Below, one piece after another: positions 36,224-60,655 of a stretch of 64,000 nt of DNA. Made by a program: the position numbers and the translations under genes. Within the stretch, counting starts at the first letter, position 1. Every line of letters begins with the position of its first letter. The DNA comes from Candidatus Omnitrophota bacterium (GTDB taxonomy: Bacteria > Omnitrophota > Gorgyraeia > Zapsychrales > Fredricksoniimonadaceae). The notes beneath the pieces were generated by a model. The model worked only from the letters and a program-made list of their open reading frames with translations. It was not told the origin of the DNA and ran no database searches. The stretch is from positions 4,821-68,820 of the forward strand of contig JADFYI010000004.1 of assembly GCA_015233145.1 (NCBI GenBank), written 5' to 3'.

Positions 36224-37267
36224 TCAGCCTCGTATTCTTTTACCTGAAAAACCAATAGAGCAATTATGACATCCGGGAATCTTTCTTCTTTCCCCCTTAG
36301 ACATCAACTCCAAAAAATCCCTGCGCTTCTGCGAACGCCAAATAGATTCCAGGGTGTCTTTTGAGAAATCCCCGTATTTTGTCTGCTCTTTGAGGTCATT
36401 ACAGCACTTTATGACAGCTCCGGATGACGAAAGCGTGACCGAGTCAAAAACAAAAGAACAAAACCCTGCCCGCGGACTAAACGCCCCGGACTTTGTGTGA
36501 AACGAATCATTCCAATCCCTGGGCTCCCACTGAGAAACTTTATGGGCCTCTTTAAATATCTCATCGTAACAGGCATCCTGGCATTGCTTTTTCGAGACGT
36601 CGTCGTTGCCGTTATGAACCTGAATGATGACTTTATGACCCGCCGCCTTGTTTTTCTTTAACAAATAGCGGGTATTTTTGATAACAGTTTCAAACTTGGC
36701 CCCGGGGCGCATATATTCAAAAGATTCCTTATTAACACCGTCAATGCTGCAAAATATCTTTTTGACAACTCCCTGCCCAAGGATAAAATCAACTTTTTCC
36801 TCATCAAATAACATCATATTGTCGTTAAGGATAACCCATGGCGAAAACGCGGGGTAGCGCCGCTTAAATCCTGCAGTTAAACGAACAATTTCCTTATATT
36901 GAGGGTGCAGAAAGAAACAACCGCTGATCGGCCATTCCATAATAATATCTTGGCGATATTGTTTATTGCCGCAAAGCTCGAAAAGTAATTTCTCATAAAG
37001 ATTCAAAGAAAGATACGCCGAACGGTCTCCCTGTTTTAAATGACAATAACGACATCGTAAATTACATACCGAGCAAAACTCGATAGAAACACACTGAATA
37101 TCTCTTAAAGAAATTTTTCCTTTCTTAAAACAAGAAAATTTCTTTCCCAATTCTCTCATTTGCCAGGGTTCCTGAAAAAGAAGAAGCCATTTCAAACGAA
37201 AAAATAAATAACAGCTATAAAACCATGAAAAATTTCTCTTTATGAAGTCTTTTTGCCCCTGCCGCAT
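36224..37267 (-). CDS. Radical SAM enzyme with Cys-rich SPASM/twitch-like C-terminus
   Basis: CNLRCRYC (CxxxCxxC). The C-terminus reads GFCSFVFDSVTLSSSGAVIKCCND...IPGCHNCS. The track start is TTG at 37297, and ATG 37267 is preferred. Confidence 0.8.
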   Translation of the reverse strand: MRQGQKDFIKRNFSWFYSCYLFFRLKWLLLFQEPWQMRELGKKFSCFKKGKISLRDIQCVSIEFCSVCNLRCRYCHLKQGDRSAYLSLNLYEKLLFELCGNKQYRQDIIMEWPISGCFFLHPQYKEIVRLTAGFKRRYPAFSPWVILNDNMMLFDEEKVDFILGQGVVKKIFCSIDGVNKESFEYMRPGAKFETVIKNTRYLLKKNKAAGHKVIIQVHNGNDDVSKKQCQDACYDEIFKEAHKVSQWEPRDWNDSFHTKSGAFSPRAGFCSFVFDSVTLSSSGAVIKCCNDLKEQTKYGDFSKDTLESIWRSQKRRDFLELMSKGERRKIPGCHNCSIGFSGKRIRG

Positions 37268-37287
37268 AATTCTTGTTCCCCATAAAC

Positions 37288-38889
37288 CTACCGACAAAAT
37301 ACAGCTATCACAAGCCCATTGGCATTCTCATAAGGCGAACCGTACTTTACATCTTTAATTTCTTCCCAAGAAACTTCCTGCCAACGGTTATCTGCTGAAA
37401 CTCTCTTCAAACAATAACTTTTTTTGAAGCCCAACCGCCCTTCATCAAACAGCCGGTCCAAAACCGGATTATAACCTACTGGGAATGTCACAACCCCCAA
37501 ACCTTCCGGAGAAAGGCAGTCTTTCATGCGTTCAATCGCCCGTATCACTTTTTCCGGCTCCCGGGGCTCTTCATCCCACCCCACATGTTCAAGGGTCGAT
37601 ATCATGACAATCGCGTCATACTTGTTCCCGGGCTTAAAATCAACCACATCTTCCCGGATAATCTTTCGGGCGCGATCATATTTATCAACGACATCGTGCG
37701 GAAACGAAAAATAATGAGAAAGGACATTGCCTACTTCAAGAATTCTTTTACCCGGGCAGGGCTTTATCATGTCCAAAACAACAGGAATTTCAACCGCCCG
37801 CTCATGACGCCAGGTCACGTTATAAGGATGAAAAAAATAGGGGTACTTTTTCCCCTCAAAATCAAACACCCACCCCCGCCTTAAGAAACTAATCACTAAA
37901 CAACTAATGCCATTCAAAACCTTGCCTTTAAGTCCAAGCCCCAGAGACGGCAATTTTACGGTCGCGAATTTTCTTCGTGCCAACAAATCAATCCTCCTTA
38001 AAACCTTTTTGAAAATATTCCTGCGAAGGCTTAAAAAATACCCTTTAATCAAATGACGAACATTTTCATCCTGAACCACAGGCACTGGCCGCAGCGTGAT
38101 CCTGACATCGCGGGGGTCATTACAAGAAAACTCCGCAGCGCTACCCCCTTGATTATGAGTAGAATCTTCGCCATACCCTATATTTGCCACCAGCGAACGG
38201 CCGGGGCATAAAGTCAGCTTTTTATTTAAAAAAGCCGCTGCCCGCCATCGAATGGCCCAGGAATCGTTCCGGCCTCGAATTTGATCCTTGAGCATTTGAA
38301 CATACGGATACGCTCCATCAGAATCAAAGGCTTTGGTCTGTCTCAAGCGAAGAAGTTCTCCCAACAATTTCTGTCCATCACGCTCAAATAAATCCCAGCC
38401 GCGCTTCCAGGTTGCCCAACCGCAGCAATCCGCCAAACGAAGAAAAAATGTTTCCGGAAGTTGTTCTCTCACAGGGTACATATAACCACTGATGGAAATA
38501 ACTGCGTTATTATCCCTATAAAGATCAAGCGCATGGTTCATGTATTCCAAAAAATAAGAAGAAACGATCATGTCATCTTCAAGCACTATCACTTTCCCAT
38601 CATCATTCACAACTTTTGTCACACCATCAATAATAGAATGCGCGAGCCCTTTATTGATCGGCGATTCAATAATCTTTATATCCCTAAACCCCGATATCGT
38701 CCGCACATAGGCGCGTACAGCATCGACCTTTGGAGCATCAGACGACTTCTTTGCCCCATCGCAAAAAACATATAACACAGAATCCCTGGCTTCGGCATTA
38801 GACAAAAGCCTGTCAACAGTCTGCCGGGTCAGGCCAAGGCGCTTATAGACAAACAAGGCAATAGGTGCCAAATCTTTAGATACTGCCAT
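37288..38889 (-). CDS. Fusion protein: N-terminal GT-A glycosyltransferase-like domain plus C-terminal SAM-methyltransferase-like domain
   Basis: N-terminal part: APIALFVYKRL...VFCDG...VIVLEDDMIV (EDD acidic motif, GNT-I/GT-A-like). C-terminal part: RILEVGNVLSHYF...DAIVMISTLEHVGWDE (class I MTase-like). Confidence 0.55.
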   Translation of the reverse strand: MAVSKDLAPIALFVYKRLGLTRQTVDRLLSNAEARDSVLYVFCDGAKKSSDAPKVDAVRAYVRTISGFRDIKIIESPINKGLAHSIIDGVTKVVNDDGKVIVLEDDMIVSSYFLEYMNHALDLYRDNNAVISISGYMYPVREQLPETFFLRLADCCGWATWKRGWDLFERDGQKLLGELLRLRQTKAFDSDGAYPYVQMLKDQIRGRNDSWAIRWRAAAFLNKKLTLCPGRSLVANIGYGEDSTHNQGGSAAEFSCNDPRDVRITLRPVPVVQDENVRHLIKGYFLSLRRNIFKKVLRRIDLLARRKFATVKLPSLGLGLKGKVLNGISCLVISFLRRGWVFDFEGKKYPYFFHPYNVTWRHERAVEIPVVLDMIKPCPGKRILEVGNVLSHYFSFPHDVVDKYDRARKIIREDVVDFKPGNKYDAIVMISTLEHVGWDEEPREPEKVIRAIERMKDCLSPEGLGVVTFPVGYNPVLDRLFDEGRLGFKKSYCLKRVSADNRWQEVSWEEIKDVKYGSPYENANGLVIAVFCR

Positions 38890-40476: not shown

Positions 40477-41703
40477 CTATTCCATGTCATGCCAGGTTTT
40501 CATTTTTCTGGCATATTTCGTAAAAACCATGTCTAACACATTCCAATACTCATCTTCTGTCCATGAAGCTACCCGCGTCTTACCCCGCTTTACTTTTTCA
40601 AGAACGACCTCGGGAGAATTTAAAATTGTTTTCACGTGCCCAGCCAGAGACTCAGGATCATTTAAGTCCATCAAGAAAGCCGCGTCACCAACCTGATCTT
40701 TGAGACCGGGAAGGTTGGAATAACATACAGGGCATCCCAAAAAGAAAGCCTCCAACGGCGGGATGTTAGTAGGGCCAAAATAGGTAGGCATAACCAGGGC
40801 CACGGCTTCTTTATACAATGAAGCGATATCTTCACCTGGAACAAATCCCAAATAATGAACCTGATCTTTAATCTCAAGCTTTTGGGCATACCGAAGAACA
40901 TGCGCGAGATTACCCCGGTCAGAGCCTGAAAAAACAACATCCATCTTAATGCCGTATTTTTTTCTGAGCACATCAATGCCATCAAGGATATAAACATGAT
41001 TCTTATGAGCCCAAAACTGGGCAGGATAAAAAAGATACTTGTTTTTTATCCCATATTTACTTCTGACATCAACAGAATTAAAGCTTGTCACATTAACAGA
41101 TGGCAAAAATTTAGCAACAAACACCCTCTCGTCATCACAGCCATACCGCCTTAAAACATTAGCCTTACCAAGCTCGGAATCAACGAGGACCGCTACCGCC
41201 TTATTGAAAATCTTATCGTAAAGATATTCACGGCTTTCAAACGCATGGTCAAAATTGACCTCGGGAAACTCGGGGTGATCCCGATGGCACAAATCCAACA
41301 ATGTCATCACATAATTTACCCTGGTCAGTGACGCAGCAAGCCCGGAGGGAGTCAAAAAATAAACCAGGTCAATGCCATCACCCAAAAGAACTTTTTCAAA
41401 AAAATTTCTCGCAAGTCCGGCTAACCATAAAATTTTATGCGCTATTTGACGTTTGGTAAGGCGCGAATAAGGCCCGTTATCTATAGAGCGAACGTCTAGG
41501 TATTTCGCCTGGATGCCATGAGCATGCAAAATATCTAAATTTTTTCTTACTGTGGTATAGAAAACAAACCTGTTCTGCCCTTGATTTTTATTCAAAAGGC
41601 AGGCGGTTGACAATTCCTGCTGAAAACCTCCGCCAACATCAAAAACACTTTCTAGAATAACAGCAATACGCACGATGCCCTCCATCTCTATAAAACTATT
41701 CAT
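40477..41703 (-). CDS. Glycosyltransferase family 4 (GT-B)
   Basis: YLFYPAQFWAHKNH...ALVMPTYFGPTNIPPLEAFFLGCPVCYSNLPGLKDQVGDAAFLMD. Confidence 0.8.
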   Translation of the reverse strand: MNSFIEMEGIVRIAVILESVFDVGGGFQQELSTACLLNKNQGQNRFVFYTTVRKNLDILHAHGIQAKYLDVRSIDNGPYSRLTKRQIAHKILWLAGLARNFFEKVLLGDGIDLVYFLTPSGLAASLTRVNYVMTLLDLCHRDHPEFPEVNFDHAFESREYLYDKIFNKAVAVLVDSELGKANVLRRYGCDDERVFVAKFLPSVNVTSFNSVDVRSKYGIKNKYLFYPAQFWAHKNHVYILDGIDVLRKKYGIKMDVVFSGSDRGNLAHVLRYAQKLEIKDQVHYLGFVPGEDIASLYKEAVALVMPTYFGPTNIPPLEAFFLGCPVCYSNLPGLKDQVGDAAFLMDLNDPESLAGHVKTILNSPEVVLEKVKRGKTRVASWTEDEYWNVLDMVFTKYARKMKTWHDME

Positions 41704-42460
41704 CCGCTACAATTCTCCTGGCAAGCACCAAACCATACCATGCCGATGAAATCGGATTGTCCGACATCCACGCGCCGGCATGTTCCAAGGAGAACCCAGT
41801 CTTACTTAGGGCCTGCTCAATCTCGGGAAGAAAAAAATAGCGCATAAAATGCGTTTCATAAAACTCGCTGTACTGTCCTGATTTCTTATTCAACGCAATA
41901 ATCTGATAGTTCACGTCAATTACCTTCCGCTTACGATGAATAACCGGCTCTGCGATACGAACAATTTTCATAACATCATCTTTAAGTCGCTTCACCCTTA
42001 CTGTCGGAAGGTCTTTGAGGACGCCATCGCCATTCCAAAAGTCAAAAATAAAAATACCGCCCTTTTTTAAATGCTTGGCTGCAGTCTTAAAAGCCGCCGA
42101 TATATCCGCATCTGCAGTCTGATAACTCATGACATGAAATAAAGAAACAACCACATCAAATTTTTTCTTTAAGCTGACCGTTCGAACATCTCCCTGAAAG
42201 AATTCAAGCTTACCGGGGATAGCACGCTTTTTTGCCTCCACTAGCATGGTGTCGCTTAAATCAATTCCTGTAACCTCGTAACCCATCTTTTGAAGACAGG
42301 CATCGTGCCTCCCTGTGCCGCAGCCTAAATTAAGAACAGTTTTGGCAGAAGGATTGTACTTCTTAATAAAATTCTGAATGTAGGCGATCTCTCCGACATA
42401 ATCTTTATCTTTGTAAAGAAGATCATAATATCTGGCGTACTCTTTAAAAACTTCAGCCAC
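41696..42460 (-). CDS. Class I SAM-dependent methyltransferase
   Basis: VLNLGCGTGRH (motif I), GIDLS, VVSLFHVMSY. Start reassigned to GTG 42460, with a perfect AAGGAGG 6 nt upstream. It overlaps the aminotransferase stop by 8 nt. Confidence 0.8.
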   Translation of the reverse strand: MAEVFKEYARYYDLLYKDKDYVGEIAYIQNFIKKYNPSAKTVLNLGCGTGRHDACLQKMGYEVTGIDLSDTMLVEAKKRAIPGKLEFFQGDVRTVSLKKKFDVVVSLFHVMSYQTADADISAAFKTAAKHLKKGGIFIFDFWNGDGVLKDLPTVRVKRLKDDVMKIVRIAEPVIHRKRKVIDVNYQIIALNKKSGQYSEFYETHFMRYFFLPEIEQALSKTGFSLEHAGAWMSDNPISSAWYGLVLARRIVADE

Positions 42461-43592
42461 GGGAAGCCTCCTTAATCCTTTCGCAAACATAACGAATATC
42501 CTGCTCGGTAAGACTGCTTGCTGAAGGAAGATATAACCCATTCTCCGTCAATCTGTCTGTTACGGGATACGCACCGCTACAATCGCATCCCACCTTTTTC
42601 AGGCAAGGCTGGCGATGCATGCCGGCAAAAAGCAGACGAGTTTCAATCCCGAAGGAGTGCAAATGGCTCATAAGTTGATCCCGATCTTTGCCAAAACTTT
42701 CCGGATCAAGTTGAATCGCGTTCATCCAATGGACATTCAAGGCACCGGCAGTGTCCTGTGGAAAAATAATCCCCGCAACGCTGTTTAAATTTTCTTTATA
42801 CAACTTCGCGTTACGCATCCGCATGGCACGATACTCATCAGCTTTTTCAACCTGGGCCAAACCTATCGCGGCATGCAGATTAGACATCCGGTAATTAAAA
42901 CCAATATCCTCATGAATGTAATTTCGAGCGCCCGTGAGAGGAAAACATAAATTCTTAAAATACCGGCAACGGCCGGCTAGTTCTTTATCATCAGTGACAA
43001 CCATACCGCCTTCACCCGTCGTTAAATTCTTGTTGGCAAAAAAACTGAACGCGGTAATATCGGCCAAGGCTCCGGTTTTCTTTCCTTTATATTCTGCGCC
43101 GTGAGATTCGGCGGCATCCTCAATGACAAACAAATGATGTTTTCTGGCCAAAGCATCAATGGCGTCCATATCACAAGGGTTTCCAAAAATAGAGACTGGC
43201 ATGATCGCTTTGGTGCGTGACGTGACCCCGGCTTCGATCTGCTTGACGTCCATGTTCCAGGTGGCGGCATCAGCATCAACAAATACAGGCGTGGCTCCGG
43301 TATAAACCACGGCAGCGGCGGTTGCAATCATAGTAAAATCAGGGATAATGACCTCATCACCCTTGCCAATTCCCAGCGCCGCCAGAGCCAGATGAATCGC
43401 GACTGTTCCGTTACAAACGGATACCCCGTGGTGGACCCCGCAATATTTCGCAAAAGCCGCTTCAAATTCGGTAACGTATTTGCCCGAAGATGAAATCCAG
43501 CCCGTCTGAAGCGCGTCAGTCGCATATTCGACCTCGCGTCCGTTTAAAAAAGGCTGACAAACAGGAATCTTTTTATCTGGTCGGCTATTCAT
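42453..43592 (-). CDS. DegT/DnrJ/EryC1/StrS-family PLP-dependent nucleotide-sugar aminotransferase (perosamine-synthase-like N-terminus)
   Basis: IPVCQPFLNGREVEYATDALQTGWISSSGKYVTEFEAAFAKYCG, VCNGTVAIHLAL, FSFFANKNLTTGEGG (PLP lysine). Confidence 0.9.
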   Translation of the reverse strand: MNSRPDKKIPVCQPFLNGREVEYATDALQTGWISSSGKYVTEFEAAFAKYCGVHHGVSVCNGTVAIHLALAALGIGKGDEVIIPDFTMIATAAAVVYTGATPVFVDADAATWNMDVKQIEAGVTSRTKAIMPVSIFGNPCDMDAIDALARKHHLFVIEDAAESHGAEYKGKKTGALADITAFSFFANKNLTTGEGGMVVTDDKELAGRCRYFKNLCFPLTGARNYIHEDIGFNYRMSNLHAAIGLAQVEKADEYRAMRMRNAKLYKENLNSVAGIIFPQDTAGALNVHWMNAIQLDPESFGKDRDQLMSHLHSFGIETRLLFAGMHRQPCLKKVGCDCSGAYPVTDRLTENGLYLPSASSLTEQDIRYVCERIKEASRG

Positions 43593-43601
43593 ACGGGCAG
43601 G

Positions 43602-44657
43602 TCATCCCTTAGTGACTTTGGAAGTTATTAAAATTTTACCGGGCAATCCCCCTAAACAGGACGGGAGCATTTTTTTTACTTCATATAAATACCTGGCCGT
43701 TAAAATATTTGCTGAATTGACGCCATTTTGGATATCATAACTAAATTCATACTCTCCATTATTTATAAATCTTGCAAATTCTGACACATTAGAATCCCCA
43801 TGTAATATCCCGTGGCATCTGGAAAGCAAAAAAGAATCAACCAAAATTTCCATTCCCAACAAATATCTGTGCTTTTCCCGAGGATTAAGGTTATAGGCAT
43901 TAACGCTATGCGTCCGGTAACTGCCAGTATGCAGCACTCTTTTGCCATATCGATTAACAAACAAATCCAGGTAGCCCTGATCTTCCGTGACCAAGAATAT
44001 TTTATCTATTTTATATTTCTCTATTATTTCATCCGTACAGCGGACCATTTGTTTCTCAGTCGGAGGGAAAGAATGCAGCGGCGCTCTCTTTTGTTCCTGC
44101 CCTCTAAAATGAACACCCAGGATCCGGCCATTGAATTTTACCGAATGCTGGGCAATAAGGCCCTCGATATATTTCTGCAAAAAGATATATTTCTTATATA
44201 TCTCATCGTGCAAGCCATTTATTTTGGTAATACAATAGCTCATGCTAGGCGGATAAACGCCGCTGCAAAAAAATACATTTTGGCTTTCATATACCTCTGC
44301 CAGCGGAACCGGTGCTACTTGCTGAAAGTAGTACTCCCAGGCATTCCTAGTATTGTTCACGGCCTCGTTTTCATTATACAAAGTCTTAAAATTCTGAAAA
44401 TCTACGACCGGTATCATTCCGGCCTGATCGGCAATCTTCAAATGGCATAAAACATGAGATACATTGGAAAAGAAACCCGACCCCCCATGATCTCGCCATA
44501 TAACATAAAACACCTTGTCAGGATTCTTTCTCCCAAAAGATCTGAAATAGCCAGCCGGGAATTTCTTAATATCAAAAGAATGCCCTCCGCACAAATCAGT
44601 TGAGGCAAAACCTTTTTGTAAATATTTATTCAGAATCTGTTTGATAATCTTTTTCAT
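43602..44657 (-). CDS. Hypothetical protein; possibly a GT-B fucosyltransferase-superfamily-like glycosyltransferase
   Basis: GVHFRGQEQ sits in the place of the HxRRxD-type motif. LVDSFLLSRCHGILHGDSNVSEFARFIN resembles motif III of the GT11/GT23/GT65 superfamily. This is a weak, by-eye resemblance only. Confidence 0.35.
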   Translation of the reverse strand: MKKIIKQILNKYLQKGFASTDLCGGHSFDIKKFPAGYFRSFGRKNPDKVFYVIWRDHGGSGFFSNVSHVLCHLKIADQAGMIPVVDFQNFKTLYNENEAVNNTRNAWEYYFQQVAPVPLAEVYESQNVFFCSGVYPPSMSYCITKINGLHDEIYKKYIFLQKYIEGLIAQHSVKFNGRILGVHFRGQEQKRAPLHSFPPTEKQMVRCTDEIIEKYKIDKIFLVTEDQGYLDLFVNRYGKRVLHTGSYRTHSVNAYNLNPREKHRYLLGMEILVDSFLLSRCHGILHGDSNVSEFARFINNGEYEFSYDIQNGVNSANILTARYLYEVKKMLPSCLGGLPGKILITSKVTKG

Positions 44658-44661
44658 TTCT

Positions 44662-45066: not shown

Positions 45067-45083
45067 AAATCCCTCTTCTTCTT

Positions 45084-51162: not shown

Positions 51163-51228
51163 CAAAACGCTCCTTTTACAAAGACTACTAATAAAAAAAT
51201 AACTATATTTATCAATCTCCTACTTCAT

Positions 51229-52821: not shown

Positions 52822-53966
52822 TATTTGCCCCCCGTCTTACACATTGTTGCCCCTAATGCCGTAGCTTTCCGAATGGCCAACTCAACATTATATTTATCTA
52901 ATTTGTAGTTCGCGTAGTTAATAGAAGAAATTGTCAGTGAATAACTATTGTTAGTGTTTTGCATTTCAGCATCAGACTTAGAACATATCAAACTCATCGA
53001 CTGGCCTCTATTAAATATATTGTCAACCTTCAGGCCCGAAGCATTAAGTAATCTCTCCAGAGATATTGATGTAAAATACCATAAATGTGAAATGTGTAAG
53101 AAATTCAAAAAAGACCTGCTCGAATAGTTGTGGCTGCCTTCCAGATTAGGCACATCAATCAAAATCTTGGTATTATCATCTTTGATTCTCGCAGACAGGG
53201 AAGAAAGAAACTTTTTCGGAGAAGCAAGATGTTCAAGAACATTGCTAATTAAAACAAAATTAAAGTCTTCATAATTTATATCACCCATCTTTAATGCATC
53301 ACCTACTTCAATCTCGCGCAAATGGCTCTTCCCATAAGCAATCTTATGAGGATCGAGATCAAAGCCGCGCACAGCCGCTCCTTGTTGCTTAAGTTCAAAA
53401 AGAACGCCTCCAGACCCACACCCTATCTCCAATATCTTTAATTTATTGGCATCACATCCTAATTTATTAAAAATATCAATAAAGAAAAACGCCTGCATCC
53501 TTTCATCAAAAAATCTAGTGTGATCGTCCATGCCGCCGCTAATAATTTCGTGAAATTCCCCGGATTCATAAAAAGAATTTAAATCTTTATCAGACAACCT
53601 TTTATTTAATTGTAAAAGGCCGCAACGCTTACACACACTCCATTGAAAAAAAGGCGGCTCTTTTGAAGACACGACAGGCAACCAATCTTGATCATTTGAA
53701 CAAATCGGGCAAGAAAAACTTTCAAGCTTATAATGACCCGACTTAAGCTTTCGTTCAAAATCTTTGCGCTTATTTAAAACATCCTGTGGGGAGGCATACA
53801 TATATATATCCACCCCGGCTCCATCCATATCGAGAGCATCCCTCATCTTTCGGGGGCGGTATTCGGCCTTGTCTTGGGAAGCTGCCCGCACAATTTCTAA
53901 ATTAAACAGCCGGAAAGTTTTCCTCACTGCCTTTTTAACAAGCAACTTAAAAACTTTAACCATCAT
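52821..53966 (-). CDS. SAM-dependent methyltransferase with an N-terminal 4-Cys zinc-ribbon
   Basis: CPICSN...CKRCG (Zn ribbon), ILEIGCGSGG (motif I), VLISNVLEHL. Start trimmed to ATG 53966, with AAGGGG upstream (the track start is TTG at 54002). Confidence 0.75.
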   Translation of the reverse strand: MMVKVFKLLVKKAVRKTFRLFNLEIVRAASQDKAEYRPRKMRDALDMDGAGVDIYMYASPQDVLNKRKDFERKLKSGHYKLESFSCPICSNDQDWLPVVSSKEPPFFQWSVCKRCGLLQLNKRLSDKDLNSFYESGEFHEIISGGMDDHTRFFDERMQAFFFIDIFNKLGCDANKLKILEIGCGSGGVLFELKQQGAAVRGFDLDPHKIAYGKSHLREIEVGDALKMGDINYEDFNFVLISNVLEHLASPKKFLSSLSARIKDDNTKILIDVPNLEGSHNYSSRSFLNFLHISHLWYFTSISLERLLNASGLKVDNIFNRGQSMSLICSKSDAEMQNTNNSYSLTISSINYANYKLDKYNVELAIRKATALGATMCKTGGK

Positions 53967-54089
53967 AAGACCCCTTATTTCTAAATCTCTAGAGTAATTC
54001 AAGATTTTTAAAATTTACAGCAACGCGCAAACCCCGGAAAAAAAGGCTTTTGTAAAACATTCCAGTCCAAGCCCCTCACATTCTCCAAC

Positions 54090-54800
54090 TCATCTTTTTC
54101 TACCTCTTATTAAAATATGCGGAAAAATTGTTTTTCTCACAATTTCTACTGTCTCGATGTTAAACCCGTTGGTTTGAAAAATTTCCAGCCAACCTTCTTT
54201 TGTCCTTAAAAATGGCGCCCCTTTAACCCGGTAGCCAAACAACGTCCTTCCCCAGGAGGACATCGAAAAGATTGTCAAAACTCTGCTGACCGCCCTTTGA
54301 ACAAAAGAACCGACAGACCAATCAATCACCAGCTCACATACAACAAAAATCCCATTGCTGGATAAAGCCTTGCCAGCGCTGCGAAATACGTCCTTTTGCT
54401 CCTCATAAGGCACAAGATATAAGACCTCGGCCATAAACAATGCCGCGTAAGGTTCCTGGCCTAAAGGAATTCCCTTGGCGTCCCCGAGAACAAACTCTGG
54501 TTCAGGTGATAGTCCAAAACCTTGAACCAATTTTTGAGCAAGCTCCACACGGCCTGGAGATAAATCTAATCCGAAAACCTTGCGCTCCCTTGACATCATG
54601 GCCATAGCCAACGACAAAATGCCATGCCCTGAACCAACCTCCAAAACACGCCCCTTTTGAGGAAGCAACTTATGAATTCTATCAAAAGGCAATATCTTGA
54701 AACGAGCCAATAAAAGCCCTCTCTGCAACTGCGACAAGCCCAGCTCTTTGCTCCTTTTAATAATATGCTGCCTTAAGTCTGAAATATTTAAATCCAACAC
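54090..54800 (-). CDS. Class I SAM-dependent methyltransferase
   Basis: VLEVGSGHGILSLAMA (motif I), VFGLDLS, LFMAEVLYLV. Confidence 0.75.
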   Translation of the reverse strand: MLDLNISDLRQHIIKRSKELGLSQLQRGLLLARFKILPFDRIHKLLPQKGRVLEVGSGHGILSLAMAMMSRERKVFGLDLSPGRVELAQKLVQGFGLSPEPEFVLGDAKGIPLGQEPYAALFMAEVLYLVPYEEQKDVFRSAGKALSSNGIFVVCELVIDWSVGSFVQRAVSRVLTIFSMSSWGRTLFGYRVKGAPFLRTKEGWLEIFQTNGFNIETVEIVRKTIFPHILIRGRKR

Positions 54801-54829: not shown

Positions 54830-55912
54830 CTATCCTTTTTTAACAACCGGCAGAAAACCCTTCCAAATATCGCCGGTATAAATAGCATTCACTGCCGCCT
54901 CACAGCTTTGCCAGCATCCCGGGCATTGGGCTACCCAGGCCCTCTGTTTCTTAACCTCCAGAGAATGCCAAATTTCTTTTAAACTGTATTGTTTTAAGTT
55001 GCCAACAACAGTGCCGTTATAAAGGCACACCGGGACATCGCCGTTCGGTAAAATACGAATATGACTGTTTAATGCCACACAAGGAGGGTTCGGGCTCGCT
55101 TGTCCGCACACAATTCTGTTATACATGCCCTGCAAATGGTAACGGTCAATGACCCGTTCCGGTAAATCGGATATCCCCTTCGATTCCTCCAGCATGCTGC
55201 TGATAAAATCCTTGAGTCCTTTCTTTGAAAACTCGCCAAAGGGCTTAACAGAGCCATTGGGATCAGTAAATTTCTTATCCGAATAAAGGCTGTTCTGCGG
55301 TTGTAACGCAATCGTGGGATAAATAGGCACATTGTCCCTGCTAAGAATCTGCTTTAACTGCCCATACGCTTCAATATCCGACTCATTGACAATCGCCTGG
55401 TTAACGCCAACGTGAAATTTGTAAACCTTGCGCAGACGTACCAGCTCCTTGATGGAGCGCATGGCTTTCTCATAAGCACCCGGGACACCCCGAATATCAT
55501 CATGGCGCTTACCAACATGATCAATAGATATCTTGATATGAATTTTCTTGGGATGCGTTAACGCTTCCATGACCTGAACAATTCTCTCTGTCAACATGCC
55601 ATTAGATGTAATATGAATCATACTTGGACGACCAACGTCATCAATCGCATTAATGACATCAAGCAGGTCTTTCCTCAAGAAAGGCTCTCCACCAGTAATC
55701 CGTAACACATCCGGATTCTTGATCTGACAAAAAATTTTGCTAATTTCATCTAAATTAAGTTCGTCATTAGCCTCTGCACGCTTGCGCCACACATCACAAA
55801 AAACACAGCGTCCATTACAGCGCCATGTAACCAAATATGTGACAAACATCGGCATCCGGGGTAACCCCAAGTGCGTAAGTCCTATCGATTTAATGATACG
55901 CGCAATATTCAT
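54830..55912 (-). CDS. Radical SAM enzyme with SPASM/twitch-like C-terminus
   Basis: CNGRCVFC (CxxxCxxC), ITGGEPFL. The C-terminus reads PPCVALNSHIRILPNGDVPVCLYN...AQCPGCWQSCEA. ATGA overlap with the upstream deacetylase gene. Confidence 0.85.
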   Translation of the reverse strand: MNIARIIKSIGLTHLGLPRMPMFVTYLVTWRCNGRCVFCDVWRKRAEANDELNLDEISKIFCQIKNPDVLRITGGEPFLRKDLLDVINAIDDVGRPSMIHITSNGMLTERIVQVMEALTHPKKIHIKISIDHVGKRHDDIRGVPGAYEKAMRSIKELVRLRKVYKFHVGVNQAIVNESDIEAYGQLKQILSRDNVPIYPTIALQPQNSLYSDKKFTDPNGSVKPFGEFSKKGLKDFISSMLEESKGISDLPERVIDRYHLQGMYNRIVCGQASPNPPCVALNSHIRILPNGDVPVCLYNGTVVGNLKQYSLKEIWHSLEVKKQRAWVAQCPGCWQSCEAAVNAIYTGDIWKGFLPVVKKG

Positions 55913-56769
55913 AACTCTTTTCGACCATTAGAATTGCCTGGCCGTCCTTCGCTGCTAAGCATCAAATACAAATCTGTCATGGTAATAAATTCATACCCCT
56001 TGGCTCGAAGCAAGGCCATAAACTTCCTGAAATATCTGATTCCTGCATGTTTATTATTACCCCAGGCTACCCGTAACTCCCAAGGCAGACGGCTAAAGCT
56101 TTTTTCACTCACAAGATAATCATGCAAATGAGAGTCAAAAATCAAAATATCCGGTAAACCAAAAACCGAATAAAGCGCCTGGTTAAAAGGAAACCCCAAG
56201 AGCTTTAAATAACTCAACGAAATCGTAAGCCGCATTCCCCGCACCGCGGCCAAAGGAAGTTCCATAATTCCGTTATCATACAAAAAAGGTGTCGGTGGCA
56301 TGTTTAAGTTGTTAAATTTTCCAGGCCGATAAGAGGGAAAAACACTGGAACTAAATTTAAAACCGTGCCGTTTCATTAAATCAATATCGCCCTCACGCAA
56401 AACACCCTGCGGCGCACGATAGCCCAAAGCCCGGTGGCCAAAAAACTTTTCAAACGTCTCTGCAGTATCTGCGATTTCCTTTTTGCTTACAGAGTCCCGA
56501 GTATTGTGCGTATGCGAATGCCCATGATAATCTTGTGCCAGCATCCTGACACAATCAAAACTTTTAGGATATTTAAGTAAAAGCCCTGTTGTTATAAAAG
56601 CCGATACCGGGGTTTTCTCTCGAACAAATACGTCTTTGAGTTCCTCCAAACCTTTACTGTCATCTAAAATATTAAAGTTGCCCACCCTATCGCCATAATC
56701 CTCTTCAAAATCCAGAGTTATGCAGACAAACTTTTTTCCTTCTGGTATTTTCTTTGCGATCTTGCTCAT
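55909..56769 (-). CDS. Polysaccharide deacetylase-like protein (CE4-like)
   Basis: CITLDFEEDYG (in place of the TFDD motif), HGHSHTH (His motif), GYRAPQG. Confidence 0.6.
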   Translation of the reverse strand: MSKIAKKIPEGKKFVCITLDFEEDYGDRVGNFNILDDSKGLEELKDVFVREKTPVSAFITTGLLLKYPKSFDCVRMLAQDYHGHSHTHNTRDSVSKKEIADTAETFEKFFGHRALGYRAPQGVLREGDIDLMKRHGFKFSSSVFPSYRPGKFNNLNMPPTPFLYDNGIMELPLAAVRGMRLTISLSYLKLLGFPFNQALYSVFGLPDILIFDSHLHDYLVSEKSFSRLPWELRVAWGNNKHAGIRYFRKFMALLRAKGYEFITMTDLYLMLSSEGRPGNSNGRKEL

Positions 56770-56787: not shown

Positions 56788-57654
56788 TTATTCATGGATC
56801 TCTCGCCTGAGCGCAGAAATCTGGTCACATAAAAGCCCGAACATAAAAACCATAAGTGACGCCAAACAAAAAATCACAGTGGTCTTCCCAATACTTTGCC
56901 AGCCTGATAGCGCCATATTCACAACAGCGCTTACTAACCCAAGCCAAAATAAAAAATTCGCTACTGTTAAGAAAACTTTTAATGGCTCAAAAAGCACCGT
57001 CAGCCGCAGCATCAACAGCATAGTTTGTGGCCCGTGTTTCATTTGGCGGACAGTGCTCTTGCCTTTTCTTTTCACAACCGTAATCGGTATCCATGCGATA
57101 TTGCGCAAACTTTTTAAGAAAGCGAACGTCATGGTGGTGGACATGGAAAACCCGTCAGGCATTAAATGAAAATATTTCATAAGGACTTCTTTTTTAACAA
57201 CCCTGAGGCCTGAATTAAAGTCTGGGATCTTTTCATCTGCTAAAAAGTTAGCAAAGTGATACAAAATCGTTTTTCCCAGCCAGCGCCTTTTGGAAACATG
57301 GGACGTTTGCGTACGCACACCCACGACCATGTCATGCTCAGGAGTTGTTATCTCAATAAGCCTGGCAATATCAGAGGCTGAATGCTGACCATCCCCATCA
57401 CAAAAAACAACATATGGTGTCGTAACCAAGCGAACGCCGGTCTTTAAACTCGCCCCATACCCGCTATTCTTATGATGTTTAACAACCCTCGCTCCGGCAT
57501 TTTCTGCGATCTCGGCGCTTTGATCTTCTGAGCCATCATCAACAACTATAATTTCTGTCTTAGGGAACTGGCCACGGAGAGCCCTGATGCACGATTCAAT
57601 GGACTCAGCTTCATTATAAACAGGAATAACTATCGTAATATTATCTTGTTTCAT
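56788..57654 (-). CDS. Glycosyltransferase family 2 with C-terminal TM helices (GtrB/ArnC-type polyprenyl-phosphate glycosyltransferase)
   Basis: ITIVIPVYNEAESI, IVVDDGSEDQS, FCDGDGQH. Two C-terminal TM helices end in GLLCDQISALRRE, as in GtrB/ArnC. Confidence 0.85.
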   Translation of the reverse strand: MKQDNITIVIPVYNEAESIESCIRALRGQFPKTEIIVVDDGSEDQSAEIAENAGARVVKHHKNSGYGASLKTGVRLVTTPYVVFCDGDGQHSASDIARLIEITTPEHDMVVGVRTQTSHVSKRRWLGKTILYHFANFLADEKIPDFNSGLRVVKKEVLMKYFHLMPDGFSMSTTMTFAFLKSLRNIAWIPITVVKRKGKSTVRQMKHGPQTMLLMLRLTVLFEPLKVFLTVANFLFWLGLVSAVVNMALSGWQSIGKTTVIFCLASLMVFMFGLLCDQISALRREIHE

Positions 57655-57665: not shown

Positions 57666-59189
57666 CTATTTTCCTTGGTCGCTGCTAGAACGTTTTTTCC
57701 TGCGAGTCAGCCCATACAGAACAAAAGGCAAAGCATATAAAATAAAGACTTTTAACGTCGGCCAAAAGTCATAAATAGGGTAATTGTTAACAATTGTTGC
57801 CGGCATTTTGTTTTTAAAACCCAACAAAGTTGCCAGTAAATAAATAAAATAAATAACTCTCTTAAAAAGAACAAAAAAAAGTTCTTTGGGATGCCCAAAA
57901 GCCGTCTTCCATACCTCGAGCTGGAACGTATGGTTAGTCCATCCCATATTTAAATCATGCTGAAGCGCCAAATTATCTCCGCTTTCAAAAAACAACATCG
58001 ATAGCACGGGAAAGAGGGCAATCAGCATCCAAAAGAGTCGGATCTTTTGACCATATTTCTCGTCGCTTTTCTTAAAGATATATGCCAAGGGAAAAACTAA
58101 AAGCGGCATAATGGACGCCATAATGAGCCGATAGCCATAAAAGCATCCCTGCGAGCCCCACACAATCATGATATAAAAAGTGACGCACATGGGTATGAGG
58201 GATATAAAAATCCTTACACGGCCGGTAAAATCTTTTAAAAAAAGCCCAGCGATGCCTAAAAAAATAAAAGGAGCCGTATAGAGCAACCCCCAATCCACGC
58301 CGAATAAAATGTGCCAGGCTCTTTTTAGATAAAAGGTCAGTGGTCTTAACTGCAATAAAATGTTTCCCACAGAGGAATATCCCTGATAGTGAAGGTAATG
58401 ATCTGGCAGAATCTTAAACAGGAAGACAACCGCCCCGGCAGCGCCGCAGACCACAGCCATTGTCCGCCAAAAGCGGGCTGTCTTAAATTCAGAAAAATTC
58501 CGGCAAAATAATGCAAAAGGCCATATCAAGGCCGCAAAGAAATTGTTATAGCGGACCAGGTATATAAGCGCCACCAGTACCCCTGTGCCAACAGCCGGCA
58601 AAACTCCCTTTAGCTCAAAGGAATCCCTTTTTAGATTCCTTAAGAGCATGAAAATCATCAGGCTTTGAAGAAAAAACTCAAACACGTGGGAAAAGATCGG
58701 CCGGCGATACACATAAAGAGGAAGCCCCTGACACACGATCATATATATGACCGCCATTGTGGCGTAACGCTTCTCAATAAACCAGCGCAGGGCCCTGTAT
58801 AACAGGAAACACGCAAACCAGAAATACACGCTCGCCGCAAAAACAAAACCAAACTGGCTCCAGCTGCCGGACACGTTTTTATAAGTCCGTGACTCTACAA
58901 TATCAGACCCCGTCAGACGGTCGAACCAGGAAAAAGCAAAAACAAAAGGCGAAGCCATAATTCCTGCGCCAATGGCGCAAGTGGGGCTACGCAATCCATA
59001 ACAAATCTCTTTCTTATATGAAGGGAATTGACCAAAAGCAAGCGACGAGGCATGAACAAAATATTCCTGATCATCGTTGCCAAAACACTCTGAATTTTCT
59101 GAATTATACCACATGCCGTTGTCTTGCATAAAAGATATTCTGAGCAGCAGAAAAGCAAAAACAAATATGGCAATAGAGATAGCCTTCAT
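57666..59189 (-). CDS. Polytopic membrane protein, GT-C-like (likely partner of the adjacent GtrB/ArnC-type GT2)
   Basis: 507 aa with more than 11 TM segments. The first loop carries GNDDQEYFVHA (acidic DD..Y motif). A strong AGAGGAGG Shine-Dalgarno sequence lies 7 nt upstream. Confidence 0.6.
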   Translation of the reverse strand: MKAISIAIFVFAFLLLRISFMQDNGMWYNSENSECFGNDDQEYFVHASSLAFGQFPSYKKEICYGLRSPTCAIGAGIMASPFVFAFSWFDRLTGSDIVESRTYKNVSGSWSQFGFVFAASVYFWFACFLLYRALRWFIEKRYATMAVIYMIVCQGLPLYVYRRPIFSHVFEFFLQSLMIFMLLRNLKRDSFELKGVLPAVGTGVLVALIYLVRYNNFFAALIWPFALFCRNFSEFKTARFWRTMAVVCGAAGAVVFLFKILPDHYLHYQGYSSVGNILLQLRPLTFYLKRAWHILFGVDWGLLYTAPFIFLGIAGLFLKDFTGRVRIFISLIPMCVTFYIMIVWGSQGCFYGYRLIMASIMPLLVFPLAYIFKKSDEKYGQKIRLFWMLIALFPVLSMLFFESGDNLALQHDLNMGWTNHTFQLEVWKTAFGHPKELFFVLFKRVIYFIYLLATLLGFKNKMPATIVNNYPIYDFWPTLKVFILYALPFVLYGLTRRKKRSSSDQGK

Positions 59190-59251
59190 GTAAAAACCTC
59201 CTCTTAACTCTTAAAACTTCGAAACAATTCCGTTAATTGCCCTACTCGCGC

Positions 59252-60655
59252 CTACGCATTATTTTTCTCTATTTTTGGTAATCTATAATATAAAGTCTTA
59301 ACGAGTTCTTTTTCTGATAGACCAACACCCAATACCTCATTACACCTCTTTAAGCCTTCTAATACACAATTTTGAAGCTGCGCATCTGGCATTGATGTCA
59401 TATTTAATCGCAAATCCTGACGATCTCCCATCAACAAGAGATATTCCTCCTCATCTTTAATAAACCCGTGCTGACGCGCATAATCATAGATGCTCGATCC
59501 GGGTTGAGGCAAAAGATACCCTGCGGATGGATAAATGCGGTTTTCAAGGCAACAATCAAATGTTTTCTTTATCGTCTGCGGCGTTTCCTGAGGATATCCG
59601 ATCACAAGGCTCGTAGAGACAGGGATCCCTGCCTTATGAAAAAGCTTTGTTTGGCGCGAAAAATGTGCTACGAGCACTTTCTTATTCATATCATGCAAAA
59701 TTCCTTCATCGGCAGACTCTAGCGAATACCCCATACTCTGACAGCCCGACGCTTTCATTTTGGCCATAATCTCAAGGTCTTCCTCTCGATCAAAAAGATT
59801 CGACCTGCAAGTGCCGCTCCAATAAAAATGCAACTTTTCATCTAAGATTGCATTTACCAATTCAAGCGTTTGTTTCTTTGAGAAAAATGTTAATTCATCC
59901 AATAAATAAATATGATTTAAAGAATACTTTTCAATCATAGCTCTCATCTCTGCCACTAAAGATGCTGCGGACCGATAACGATAAGGAACCCCTTTAAAAA
60001 CATGGTAACAAAAACCACAATTAGCAATACAACCGCGAGCGGTATTAACTGGCAGCCCACGCACCTGTTCTCTGGGAATAGGAAGAGGATCCGAGGGATA
60101 AACTTTGGAATACTCTATGTATTTATCAACATTAAATATTGAAAAATCAATCGGAGGGATAATGGAAATATCCTCAATCAGCGCCCTCGGTTCCGTTGTT
60201 ACAACTTCTCCGCCATTTAAAAAACAAATACCCTTAACTTTATCCACAGGCCTCTTGGCAGAAATCTCATGCAAAAGCTCAACGACAGTCTGCTCACCTT
60301 CACCGATAACAGCGTAATCAACTGCCGTCCTGGTCAACAAAATATGCGGAATAGATGTCGCTACGGAATTACCCACAATAATCTTTGTCTGGGGATGTGC
60401 CGATTTAATAATTGCGGCATATTCTTTAATGGTTTTATACCCCGTCACGATACATCCCATACAAACAGCATCATACCGATTGCTTTTCAGAAAACTTTCT
60501 ACATAAGCTGGTGAATAACGTTCAACATCAATGTCTAAGAGATCAAAAGAAAACCCTGCATTCTTAATGGCTGTCGCCACGTAACCCAGTCCAATGGGAA
60601 ATAATCTTAACGGCGATTGGGGGCGAAGCGAGACGTTAATAACTAATATTTTCAT
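59252..60655 (-). CDS. B12-binding-domain radical SAM enzyme (class B, methylase-like)
   Basis: The N-terminal ~140 aa form a flavodoxin-like cobalamin-binding-type domain (MKILVINVS...FPIGLGYVATAIKNAG...DAVCMGCIVT). This is followed by ARGCIANCGFC (CxxxCxxC). Confidence 0.85.
   Translation of the reverse strand: MKILVINVSLRPQSPLRLFPIGLGYVATAIKNAGFSFDLLDIDVERYSPAYVESFLKSNRYDAVCMGCIVTGYKTIKEYAAIIKSAHPQTKIIVGNSVATSIPHILLTRTAVDYAVIGEGEQTVVELLHEISAKRPVDKVKGICFLNGGEVVTTEPRALIEDISIIPPIDFSIFNVDKYIEYSKVYPSDPLPIPREQVRGLPVNTARGCIANCGFCYHVFKGVPYRYRSAASLVAEMRAMIEKYSLNHIYLLDELTFFSKKQTLELVNAILDEKLHFYWSGTCRSNLFDREEDLEIMAKMKASGCQSMGYSLESADEGILHDMNKKVLVAHFSRQTKLFHKAGIPVSTSLVIGYPQETPQTIKKTFDCCLENRIYPSAGYLLPQPGSSIYDYARQHGFIKDEEEYLLLMGDRQDLRLNMTSMPDAQLQNCVLEGLKRCNEVLGVGLSEKELVKTLYYRLPKIEKNNA

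Follow-up and report, generated by a model that had tools for sequence, protein, structure and literature searches.

Radical SAM enzymes (SAM, S-adenosylmethionine) rely on a 5'-deoxyadenosyl radical that takes a hydrogen atom from the substrate, and nearly all characterised members that act on sugars belong, to our knowledge, to antibiotic and nucleoside natural-product pathways. Described enzymes close to those treated here are BtrN, the 2-deoxy-scyllo-inosamine dehydrogenase of the butirosin pathway (PDB 4M7T), AprD4, the radical SAM 1,2-diol dehydratase that carries out C3' deoxygenation in the apramycin pathway (PDB 6FD2), the cytosylglucuronate decarboxylase BlsE, and DesII. In this work we analyse four radical SAM genes, rSAM1 to rSAM4, carried by a 64,000-nucleotide stretch of DNA (the window) from a Candidatus Omnitrophota bacterium (contig JADFYI010000004.1, positions 4,821 to 68,820). 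The four genes represent four separate uncharacterised families, and it is probable that they encode sugar-tailoring enzymes of an envelope-glycan locus.

Described glycan systems offer a second point of reference. The logic of ArnC, ArnD and ArnT is known from the polymyxin-resistance pathway; this system, along with GtrB/GtrA/GtrC and CsbB/YfhO, is like the module around rSAM3 in having a synthase-type GT2 glycosyltransferase and a large polytopic protein, with a CE4-like enzyme in the ArnD position of the module. The ArnC/ArnT, Gtr and CsbB/YfhO systems work without a radical SAM enzyme, whereas the rSAM3 module has one. Similarly, the canonical pseudaminic acid (Pse) pathway (PseB, C, H, G, I, F) resembles the surroundings of rSAM4, in which PseI scores above its equivalog cutoff, but it has no radical SAM, PIG-L or formyltransferase steps, and the rSAM4 variant adds all three.

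What is known, then, are the branches of the superfamily and radical tailoring of sugars in antibiotic pathways; the systematic presence of such enzymes in envelope-glycan pathways appears undescribed. Full-text literature on radical SAM enzymes in polysaccharide, O-antigen, nonulosonate, flagellin-glycosylation and pseudaminic-acid contexts yielded no characterised example, and no radical SAM step in O-antigen, capsule, nonulosonate or lipid-linked-sugar pathways is described in searchable full texts. Phase-variable radical SAM genes among methyltransferase and formyltransferase genes of Campylobacter fetus receive a passing mention (PMC6321876), as does the co-occurrence of radical SAM with sugar-metabolism domains in Omnitrophota giant proteins (bioRxiv 10.64898/2026.06.07.730766). 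The four families would be good leads for new radical sugar chemistry, and amount to a testable genome-mining lead that overturns no current view.

Four radical SAM families in one glycan locus

Pfam and NCBIfam profiles were scanned over 66 open reading frames (ORFs) of the window. From ~2.9 kb to 64 kb, all ORFs of at least 100 aa that fit the gene model lie on the minus strand, and the profile matches outline a co-directional glycan assembly locus that begins at ~17.2 kb and continues past 64 kb, a length of at least 47 kb. At least ten GT2/GT4 glycosyltransferases, about six class I methyltransferases and two Wzy_C proteins were counted in it. A first-pass annotation of this DNA had placed the radical SAM genes in a glycan locus, and this setting is borne out by phosphoglycosyl transferase (PGT), WecG, Wzy_C, GDP-mannose dehydratase, GT2/GT4, DegT, PseI and cytidylyltransferase genes. 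Intergenic gaps in the locus do not exceed 110 bp and many genes overlap; the gaps flanking the radical SAM genes are at most 63 bp, and rSAM1 and rSAM3 overlap neighbouring genes by 4-32 bp. With the good confidence that we place in our explanation as a whole, we take the region to be the upstream half of an O-antigen- or capsule-type envelope-glycan locus equipped with Wzy_C, phosphoglycosyl-transferase and WecG machinery. The radical SAM genes are the following:

36224..37159 (ORF to 37297), minus strand: rSAM1, radical SAM core with a C-terminal twitch-like Fe-S domain (Pfam, BtrN twitch alignment, family alignment)
50269..51165, minus strand: rSAM2, BtrN-like twitch radical SAM enzyme (Pfam, full-length BtrN match)
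54830..55912, minus strand: rSAM3, radical SAM core with partial SPASM domain, a large uncharacterised family (Pfam, family alignment, AlphaFold2 model)
59252..60655, minus strand: rSAM4, B12-binding and radical SAM domains (class B), a highly conserved family linked to pseudaminic-acid operons (Pfam, AlphaFold2 model, synteny)

The CxxxCxxC motifs noted in the first pass are present in the translated minus-strand ORFs (CNLRCRYC in rSAM1, CNLKCPYC in rSAM2, CNGRCVFC in rSAM3 and CIANCGFC in rSAM4), and all four proteins contain the Radical_SAM core (PF04055) at 38.5-60.7 bits against a gathering cutoff of 29.5, with Pfam E-values of 1e-9 to 1e-16. Their domain scores, each above the gathering cutoff, are 38.5 bits for Radical_SAM and 38.1 for SPASM in rSAM1, 50.2 and 29.7 in rSAM2, and 60.7 and 39.8 in rSAM3, while rSAM4 combines a B12-binding domain (PF02310, 69.1 bits, residues 17-127) with a PF04055 match of 59.2 bits. 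None of the four reaches a curated NCBIfam cutoff. The best scores are 62.9 bits against a cutoff of 170 for rSAM1 (N_Twi_rSAM), 45.1 against 250 for rSAM2, 76.1 against 500 for rSAM3 (AhbD, TIGR04545), and, for rSAM4, 140.8 against 577.6 (HpnJ, TIGR03471) and 134.2 against 481.35 (BchE, TIGR02026); rSAM4 scores 51.2 bits against the cutoff of 500 of the AprD4 family, NF033070. Membership in AhbD, BchE, HpnJ, HpnH, ArsS, MoaA and anSME was rejected on account of scores below the curated cutoffs. Recent paralogy among the four genes was rejected as well: only rSAM1 and rSAM2 are weakly alike, in the twitch domain (27% over 91 aa), and the others are unrelated beyond the radical SAM core.

The first three proteins do share the C-terminal GX4C...CxxC array that had been proposed for them, which reads SGAVIKCC...PGCHNC in rSAM1, YGQLVMCC...PICHKC in rSAM2 and NGDVPVC...CPGCWQSC in rSAM3. 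The earlier description of these regions as SPASM/twitch-like is right in its twitch-like part, with four to five cysteines, but not for a full SPASM domain: the seven-cysteine array of the anSME/PqqE/AhbD type, CX9-15GX4C...CX2CX5CX3C...C, which holds two clusters, is matched by none of the three. rSAM1 and rSAM3 have five invariant C-terminal cysteines each, and rSAM2 has four plus an adjacent fifth. We call the three domains twitch-like because the seven-cysteine array is missing in each, and they probably bind one auxiliary cluster apiece.

Automatic JGI names differ from these assignments, with rSAM3 homologues called “Fe-coproporphyrin III synthase” (AhbD) and rSAM4 homologues called “anaerobic Mg-protoporphyrin IX monomethyl ester cyclase” (BchE) or YgiQ. 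The AhbD (heme) and BchE (bacteriochlorophyll) mislabels on these homologues can mislead metabolic readings and those of “auxiliary metabolic genes”; ahbD and bchE are discussed as auxiliary metabolic genes in a viral study (PMC13452462).

Relatives and partner genes of each family

Homologue loci from other genomes are labelled L001, L003 and so on. The most widespread of the four families is that of rSAM4, with more than 1000 homologues, of which the best 120, at 59-83% identity, come from Omnitrophota, Syntrophales, Deltaproteobacteria and Negativicutes, including a cultured Pelosinus. The protein belongs to class B by domain order, and may bind cobalamin and transfer a methyl group. C68, C283, C305 and C369 are invariant in the family alignment besides the SAM-cluster cysteines. 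In PDB sequence searches the core is closest to AprD4 (E 2.8e-10), and the AlphaFold2 model (predicted local distance difference test, pLDDT, 87.5) has a class B fold whose highest TM-score, 0.72-0.74, is again with AprD4; by Foldseek E-value the best matches are TsrM (top), MgmA, CysS and TokK, and OxsB is also matched. rSAM4 shares with AprD4 an N-terminal Rossmann domain and presumably an amino-sugar substrate; AprD4, however, comes from an aminoglycoside cluster, and rSAM4 from a pseudaminic-acid operon and with a clear Pfam B12-binding domain. With the class B methylases TsrM, TokK, CysS and MgmA it has the B12-binding and radical SAM architecture in common, yet it falls in no curated class B family. 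GenK and Fom3 are class B methylases as well. The genes between rSAM4 and the edge of the window are these:

60681..61415, minus strand: PIG-L family N-deacetylase next to rSAM4 (Pfam PIG-L, 91.6 bits)
61403..62940, minus strand: two formyltransferase-related genes, 61403-62104 and 62101-62940 (Pfam Formyl_trans_N/C and Formyl_trans_C_2; NCBIfam ArnA-type formyltransferase, 148-163 bits)
62943..63989, minus strand: PseI, pseudaminic acid synthase (NCBIfam TIGR03586, 479.9 bits against a cutoff of 340.25; Pfam NeuB and SAF)

The same company is kept elsewhere. Among eight places with an rSAM4 homologue of at least 60% identity, the window included, PseI lies within 8 kb in six (the window, L007, L008, L017, L021 and L030). 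In the Pelosinus locus, L007 (GCA_042610375.1, contig JBGJZL010000001.1, within 132735-152129), the homologue sits between a PseF-type cytidylyltransferase and a PseG-formyltransferase fusion, in a run that also contains PseB/PseC-type genes, a methyltransferase, PIG-L and PseI, so that the set of PseI, formyltransferase, PIG-L and rSAM4 is common to the window and Pelosinus. The homologue directly follows PseI in L008 (Syntrophales) and L030, in operons with PseG-, PseH- and WbqC-type genes, and is adjacent to PseI in L017 and L021; PseB/C/F/G/H/I-type genes surround rSAM4 homologues in Pelosinus, Syntrophales and other contigs. PIG-L homologues that are 40-42% identical to that of the window occur near the rSAM4 homologues of L007 and L020, the latter locus (49% identity) also containing WbqC, a methyltransferase and a second B12-type radical SAM gene. 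The context in L016 consists of GNAT, ATP-grasp, DUF4910 and aminoglycoside-N-acetyltransferase-like genes.

Some further observations concern this family. In L018 a 2-hydroxyacid dehydrogenase gene, of a type that the window also encodes (see below), comes directly after the rSAM4 homologue. In the IMG/VR contigs L031 and L032, classed as viral, rSAM4-family genes (44% and 51% identity) are surrounded by cytidylyltransferase, epimerase, GT2, methyltransferase, PGT-like, NeuB-like and radical SAM/SPASM-like genes; these contigs may be prophage-borne glycan modules or misclassified cellular DNA.

The rSAM3 family is represented by 471 matches, with 43-67% identity among the matches listed, in Patescibacteria, Planctomycetota and Omnitrophota. 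In a 36-sequence alignment C32/36/39 and C278, C296, C330, C333 and C337 are invariant, which gives a C-terminal array of CX17C...CX2CX3C with CX2CX3C in place of the SPASM CX2CX5CX3C; the fit to a twitch domain is approximate. PDB sequence searches with the core returned SkfB, BlsE and MoaA, BlsE and SkfB jointly at the top. The AlphaFold2 model (pLDDT 91.8) finds BlsE as its best fold, followed by SkfB, anSME, SuiB, MoaA and DesII, at TM-scores of only 0.5-0.6 and 14-18% identity. The sugar-acting BlsE and DesII are thus among the matches, with the peptide maturases SkfB and SuiB and anSME scoring about equally, and rSAM3 differs from BlsE and DesII in its own invariant cysteine array. The model places rSAM3 in a distinct branch of the SPASM/twitch group. 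In a viral-contig scan with rSAM3 only generic radical SAM cores were found. The gene lies in the following module:

54090..54800, minus strand: class I methyltransferase directly downstream of rSAM3 (Pfam Methyltransf_25/31/11)
55909..56769, minus strand: weak CE4-like deacetylase whose stop overlaps the rSAM3 start in ATGA (Polysacc_deac_1, 21.9 bits against a cutoff of 23.1; PDB E 0.012)
56788..57654, minus strand: GT2 of the polyprenyl-phosphate-sugar synthase type (AglJ/PpgS/ArnC/DPMS-like), conserved rSAM3 partner (NCBIfam, PDB, transmembrane prediction)
57666..59189, minus strand: 507-aa protein with 12 predicted transmembrane segments, candidate GT-C-type transferase or flippase for a lipid-linked sugar (transmembrane prediction)

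The ATGA coupling between the CE4-like gene and rSAM3, described in the first pass, was seen; the deacetylase itself, called CE4-like there, gives a weak match that stays below the Pfam cutoff. The GT2 matches AglJ (129.5 bits), PpgS and ArnC in NCBIfam and ArnC, DPMS and GtrB in the PDB, and has C-terminal transmembrane helices at residues 213-282; its scores all lie below the equivalog cutoffs and assign its type, not its sugar. Homologues of this GT2, 34-43% identical, were found at 0-6.5 kb from the rSAM3 homologue in L003, L004 and L005/L006, immediately beside it in L004 and at a distance of 2.5-6.5 kb in L003 and L005, and in L029 a 291-aa GT2 recognised by Pfam only lies ~2 kb from it. 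One or more methyltransferases are within one or two genes of the rSAM3 homologue in all four contexts (L003, L004, L005 and L029). A PF03706 membrane protein is present in L003-L006, and rSAM3 homologue loci often contain asparagine-synthase-like amidotransferases and large membrane proteins that are unassigned or of the PMT_2 family. A YfhO-type GT-C protein adjoins a 67%-identical rSAM3 homologue, so that the GT-C proteins PMT_2 and YfhO of the three-component systems do occur in this family's loci; the window differs from those systems in that its 12-segment protein has no family match and its CE4 match is sub-threshold. The 12-segment protein resembles a 546-aa protein near the rSAM3 homologue of L005.

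rSAM2 stands out by its likeness to BtrN. The NCBI gene call is 297 aa with a start at 51162, and a PDB sequence search matched BtrN with an E-value of 1.7e-12 over residues 40-266 of 298, nearly the full length. C201, C218, C262 and C265 align with the BtrN auxiliary-cluster ligands C169, C187, C232 and C235, and the CNxxCxYCPNS motif is common to both enzymes. BtrN's compact size is approximately matched by rSAM1 and rSAM2. BtrN differs in its low identity, in having a single Cys where rSAM1 and rSAM2 have a CC pair, and in serving an aminoglycoside pathway whereas the rSAM2 locus is one for a surface glycan; scans of the window with Pfam and NCBIfam gave no match to DOI synthase or aminoglycoside-specific families, the context being a Wzy/PGT glycan locus. 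Two genes stand upstream of rSAM2:

51229..52821, minus strand: 530-aa protein without assigned family, conserved rSAM2 partner (L001 synteny)
52821..54002, minus strand: class I methyltransferase with N-terminal Zn ribbon (Pfam Methyltransf_23, 63.5 bits; CxxC...CxxC at residues 98, 101, 124, 127)

The Zn ribbon noted in the first reading of this DNA is confirmed. The 530-aa protein, taken at that time for KpsC-like, has no match in Pfam (E<=1), NCBIfam or PDB sequences; only an RLHP-type motif is visible by eye, and the name was rejected. Homologues of rSAM2 are few (eight by word-index search). The best, at 43% identity in L001, adjoins a homologue of the 530-aa protein that is 40% identical over 506 aa. 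Besides these, L001 contains two more radical SAM genes, one B12-type and one of the radical SAM/SPASM kind, genes for a formyltransferase, a sulfotransferase and UDP-glucose dehydrogenase, and the DegT/134-aa/methyltransferase block of the window described below. In L026 an rSAM2-like gene is paired with a B12-type radical SAM gene, a cytidylyltransferase and a short-chain dehydrogenase/reductase (SDR).

The rSAM1 family is small, with 27 cluster representatives at E<1e-30 among 1.84 billion in an exhaustive search. Family homology begins at about ORF residue 59, and for this reason the start is probably M47 (37159) rather than 37297 or the 37267 given in the first-pass annotation. In a 15-sequence family alignment the CxxxCxxC motif and C280, C298, C299, C343 and C346 (ORF numbering) are invariant. 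The C-terminal domain aligns with the BtrN twitch domain at identical cysteine spacing, the match being confined to that domain. Its neighbours are:

35161..36255, minus strand: AT3 membrane O-acyltransferase downstream of rSAM1 (Pfam Acyl_transf_3, 96.9 bits; 8 predicted transmembrane segments)
37288..38889, minus strand: 533-aa putative glycosyltransferase-methyltransferase (GT-MTase) fusion upstream of rSAM1 (only sub-threshold Pfam matches to GT25, GT2 and Methyltransf_12)

The acyltransferase named earlier as a neighbour is confirmed by Pfam, and the GT-MTase fusion is adjacent as reported, although its Pfam matches are all sub-threshold. The more general statement that each radical SAM gene is next to a methyltransferase holds for rSAM3, which directly abuts a clear one, but the methyltransferase is one gene away from rSAM2 and rSAM4 abuts none. 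A genome scan with a profile from a 4-sequence alignment identified clear rSAM1 homologues (43-52% identity) in six loci of metagenome-assembled genomes (MAGs) from Omnitrophota, Planctomycetales and Rhodospirillaceae. All six sit among glycan genes that match those of the window, namely GT4, the GT-MTase-like protein or the DegT/134-aa/methyltransferase block, and in three of them (L009, L011 and L012) the PGT and WecG of the window have homologues too. Homologues of the 533-aa protein lie near rSAM1 homologues in L011 and L013. Directly beside the rSAM1 homologues lie methyltransferases, GT4, GDSL acylhydrolases, a sulfotransferase or an epimerase. At 6498-8975 of L009 (Omnitrophota MAG JAQTSV010000001.1), in the reading frame of the assembly as it stands, a class B enzyme (B12-binding/radical SAM) and a twitch enzyme of the rSAM1 type are joined in a single 825-aa ORF. 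The fusion suggests that the two enzyme types act consecutively, in two radical steps on one substrate.

The proposal of the first-pass annotation, radical chemistry on envelope sugars, is supported on the points on which it had said it could fail: no protein reaches the curated cutoff of a characterised non-glycan family, homologues of all four lie in glycan neighbourhoods and not among peptide or cofactor genes, and the auxiliary cysteines are invariant in the rSAM1 and rSAM3 families and aligned with those of BtrN in rSAM2. Comparison with solved structures, by sequence and by model, places the sugar-acting BtrN, BlsE and AprD4 among the nearest solved relatives, with DesII further down.

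Candidate reactions and competing explanations

We infer substrates and reaction types from these architectures and contexts. In all four enzymes the 5'-deoxyadenosyl radical would most likely abstract a hydrogen atom from a sugar carbon. For rSAM2 the best guess is alcohol oxidation, because a BtrN-like core is joined to a complete set of twitch ligands: the enzyme would most likely form a ketone from a secondary alcohol on a nucleotide-sugar or amino-sugar, with the auxiliary cluster as electron outlet, and the ketone would then be open to transamination, epimerisation or methylation. Ketosugars would be the usual substrates entering the aminotransferase and methyltransferase steps of the locus. 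rSAM1, as a distant twitch enzyme in a sub-module with the GT-MTase-like protein and the AT3 acyltransferase, could plausibly carry out the same chemistry as rSAM2 or an epimerisation.

For rSAM3 a polyprenyl-phosphate-linked sugar is the proposed substrate, because the family is conserved with an ArnC/AglJ-like GT2, with flippase- or GT-C-type membrane proteins and with methyltransferases. The GT2 would place a sugar on polyprenyl phosphate; rSAM3, the weak CE4-like enzyme and the class I methyltransferase would modify the lipid-linked sugar at the cytoplasmic face; and the 12-segment protein would then flip it or transfer it to a polymer. rSAM4 is assigned by its operon context to a pseudaminic-acid variant, in which it would alter the nonulosonate or its 2,4-diamino-2,4,6-trideoxyhexose precursor while PIG-L deacetylation and formylation edit the N-acyl pattern. 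Methylation of unactivated carbons is the commonest chemistry of class B enzymes, and C-methylation of such a carbon by rSAM4 is a serious, if still tentative, candidate. Elimination or rearrangement, for example an AprD4-like dehydration or deamination beside the freed amine, is a more doubtful but real alternative, since the closest fold is the diol dehydratase AprD4; some other chemistry takes what remains.

Several points weigh against sugar tailoring by these enzymes. SPASM/twitch enzymes are more often peptide or cofactor maturases. BtrN, BlsE and AprD4 are only distantly similar to the enzymes here (15-30% identity, TM-scores of 0.5-0.74), and this likeness does not fix substrate or reaction; rSAM4 scores highest in NCBIfam with HpnJ, BchE and a lipid enzyme, and no sugar enzyme is among these; and AprD4, the closest fold, is not known to us to use cobalamin. 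PseB, PseC, PseG and PseH were not identified in the window, where the operon runs off at 64000 and its rest may lie beyond; the other Pse-type genes there are a PseF-like cytidylyltransferase below cutoff and a DegT gene in a different block. In the rSAM3 module the 12-segment protein has no Pfam or PDB match, its assignment to GT-C or PF03706 failed, and the window contains no PF03706 protein, unlike L003-L006. The samples of homologue loci are small, at 2 to 8 per family.

These points bear on other explanations of the same genes. That the target of rSAM3, and perhaps of rSAM4, is the lipid portion of a glycolipid or carrier (polyprenyl or hopanoid-like), after the logic of HpnH/I/J/K/L, is suggested by HpnJ as the best NCBIfam match of rSAM4 (140.8 bits), followed by a B12 radical SAM enzyme of lipid biosynthesis, by weak matches of rSAM3 to HpnH, by the GT2 and PF03706 membrane proteins beside rSAM3 homologues, and by the combination in the window of GT2, deacetylases and a B12-type radical SAM gene, as with hpnI, hpnK and hpnJ. 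We take the Hpn genes to serve the hopanoid side-chain pathway, and PF03706 to be the HpnL-type family. The Hpn cutoffs are far from being reached, however, the window holds neither a squalene-hopene cyclase nor any other hopanoid gene, and the close homologues of rSAM4 are inside Pse operons and not lipid operons; as HpnJ itself works on the glucosamine ring, the analogy would lead to sugar chemistry anyway, and we regard lipid modification as unlikely. It is very unlikely that one or more of the enzymes act on a pathway protein or a cofactor, by anSME-like maturation or heme/bacteriochlorophyll-type chemistry. The JGI names of rSAM3 and rSAM4 homologues, anSME among the top folds of rSAM3 and sulfotransferases in several related loci speak for such a role, but the AhbD and BchE scores (76 against 500 and 134 against 481) are far too low, the complete set of SPASM cysteines for two clusters, as in anSME and AhbD, is absent from rSAM3, and neither the window nor the homologue contexts contain tetrapyrrole or sulfatase genes.

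A still smaller chance is given to the three SPASM/twitch proteins being maturases of ribosomally synthesised and post-translationally modified peptides (RiPPs) lodged in a glycan locus. rSAM1, rSAM2 and rSAM3 do have Pfam SPASM matches, their weak NCBIfam matches are often RiPP maturases (WgkB, SCIFF, PqqE, CcpM, HxsC), SkfB, SuiB and CteB-type structures are among the fold matches of rSAM3, and a weak PqqD-like ORF occurs in L002, a distant rSAM2 context. Yet all of the RiPP-type scores fall far below cutoff, the cysteine count fits a twitch domain and not a seven-cysteine SPASM domain, and there is no PqqD/RRE Pfam match, the 31-49 residues before CxxxCxxC being too short for such a domain. 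With gaps of at most 63 bp beside the radical SAM genes there is also no space for a precursor gene, and all examined homologue neighbourhoods consist of sugar genes. Least probable of all is fortuitous clustering, in which a genome rich in radical SAM genes, as of an anaerobe, has left passengers in a variable island. The locus does look like such an island when set beside L015, which has the same PGK/TIM/SecG flank and PGT/WecG/GDP-mannose dehydratase genes with other content between, and a fifth radical SAM gene is found away from the main locus; but chance is largely refuted by the tight operon packing, with its overlaps at rSAM1 and rSAM3, and by conserved synteny, the same partners accompanying every one of the four families in other phyla.

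Sugar tailoring by the four families therefore remains the explanation that we prefer. A bolder form of it, that at least two of the families catalyse reactions unprecedented in envelope-glycan biosynthesis, is possible but doubtful in its joint claim: rSAM4 would define a phylum-spanning branch of the Pse pathway (Omnitrophota, Syntrophales, Negativicutes) whose product is a C-alkylated, deoxygenated or rearranged nonulosonic acid, and rSAM3 would be the first radical SAM enzyme on a polyprenyl-phosphate-linked sugar, in an ArnC/ArnT-like system common in Patescibacteria, Planctomycetota and Omnitrophota. If sugar tailoring is true, anaerobic and uncultivated lineages (Omnitrophota, Patescibacteria, Planctomycetota, Syntrophales, Negativicutes) would bear surface sugars with modifications unlisted in current glycan chemistry, such as C-methyl, deoxy, keto-derived or rearranged sugars. 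Of the four families, that of rSAM4 lends itself to direct testing, because a cultured Pelosinus strain carries a 62%-identical copy within a complete Pse-type operon.

Other genes and variability of the locus

The remaining glycan genes assigned to blocks are these:

17199..22686, minus strand: core glycan assembly, with a Wzy_C protein, GDP-fucose-synthase-like epimerase, GDP-mannose dehydratase, polyprenyl glycosylphosphotransferase and WecG/TagA (Pfam)
41696..46280, minus strand: amino-sugar block, with a methyltransferase, DegT aminotransferase and three proteins without Pfam family (351, 134 and 398 aa) (Pfam)
46277..49304, minus strand: SDR, D-2-hydroxyacid dehydrogenase, PseF-like CMP-sugar-type cytidylyltransferase and cyclase/arylformamidase-like protein (Pfam, NCBIfam)

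The amino-sugar block recurs as a core of the 134-aa protein, DegT and methyltransferase in L001, L011, L012 and L014, and as a pair of the 134-aa protein and DegT in L015. The 134-aa protein, which shows 41-60% identity across phyla, may be a sugar ketoisomerase-like partner of the DegT aminotransferase. In the adjoining run the cytidylyltransferase scores 94.5 bits for NCBIfam PseF against a cutoff of 205.7, and the arylformamidase/cyclase-like protein 141.8 bits against 223; the run might make an unusual N-acyl group (e.g. of glyceroyl type) or a second CMP-activated acid sugar. For three minus-strand genes inside the glycan locus (22758-24380, 28106-30091 and 32434-33156) no Pfam family was found even at E<=1. 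They comprise two large polytopic membrane proteins, with 11 and 12 predicted transmembrane segments, which are candidates for a flippase or polymerase, and a 240-aa protein. L005 holds a 661-aa protein of the same length as 28106-30091 and also without Pfam hit, and tblastn detected no similarity between the two.

PGK, TIM, SecG and a peptide ABC transporter are encoded downstream of the glycan locus. A comparison of L015 (Omnitrophota MAG JAHFGE010000003.1) with positions 14725-22686 of the window shows PGT, WecG, GDP-mannose dehydratase (79% identity) and PGK/TIM/SecG to be common to both, while the glycan genes between and around them are very different in number and order. Because the flanks are shared and the glycan content differs, the locus behaves as a variable surface-glycan island. 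Hypervariable lipopolysaccharide and capsule loci have been described for Omnitrophota (bioRxiv 10.64898/2026.06.07.730766), with which the contrast agrees.

The fifth radical SAM gene (3748-4734, minus strand; Radical_SAM 92.2 bits, weak SPASM match of E 0.039), absent from the first-pass annotation, is placed among genes at 2912-3820, 4731-5519, 5553-6767 and 6764-9100, all on the minus strand. It adjoins a GlgC/GlmU-like nucleotidyltransferase and a 778-aa protein with seven transmembrane segments and TPR repeats, and this group could be a second small glycan-related module.

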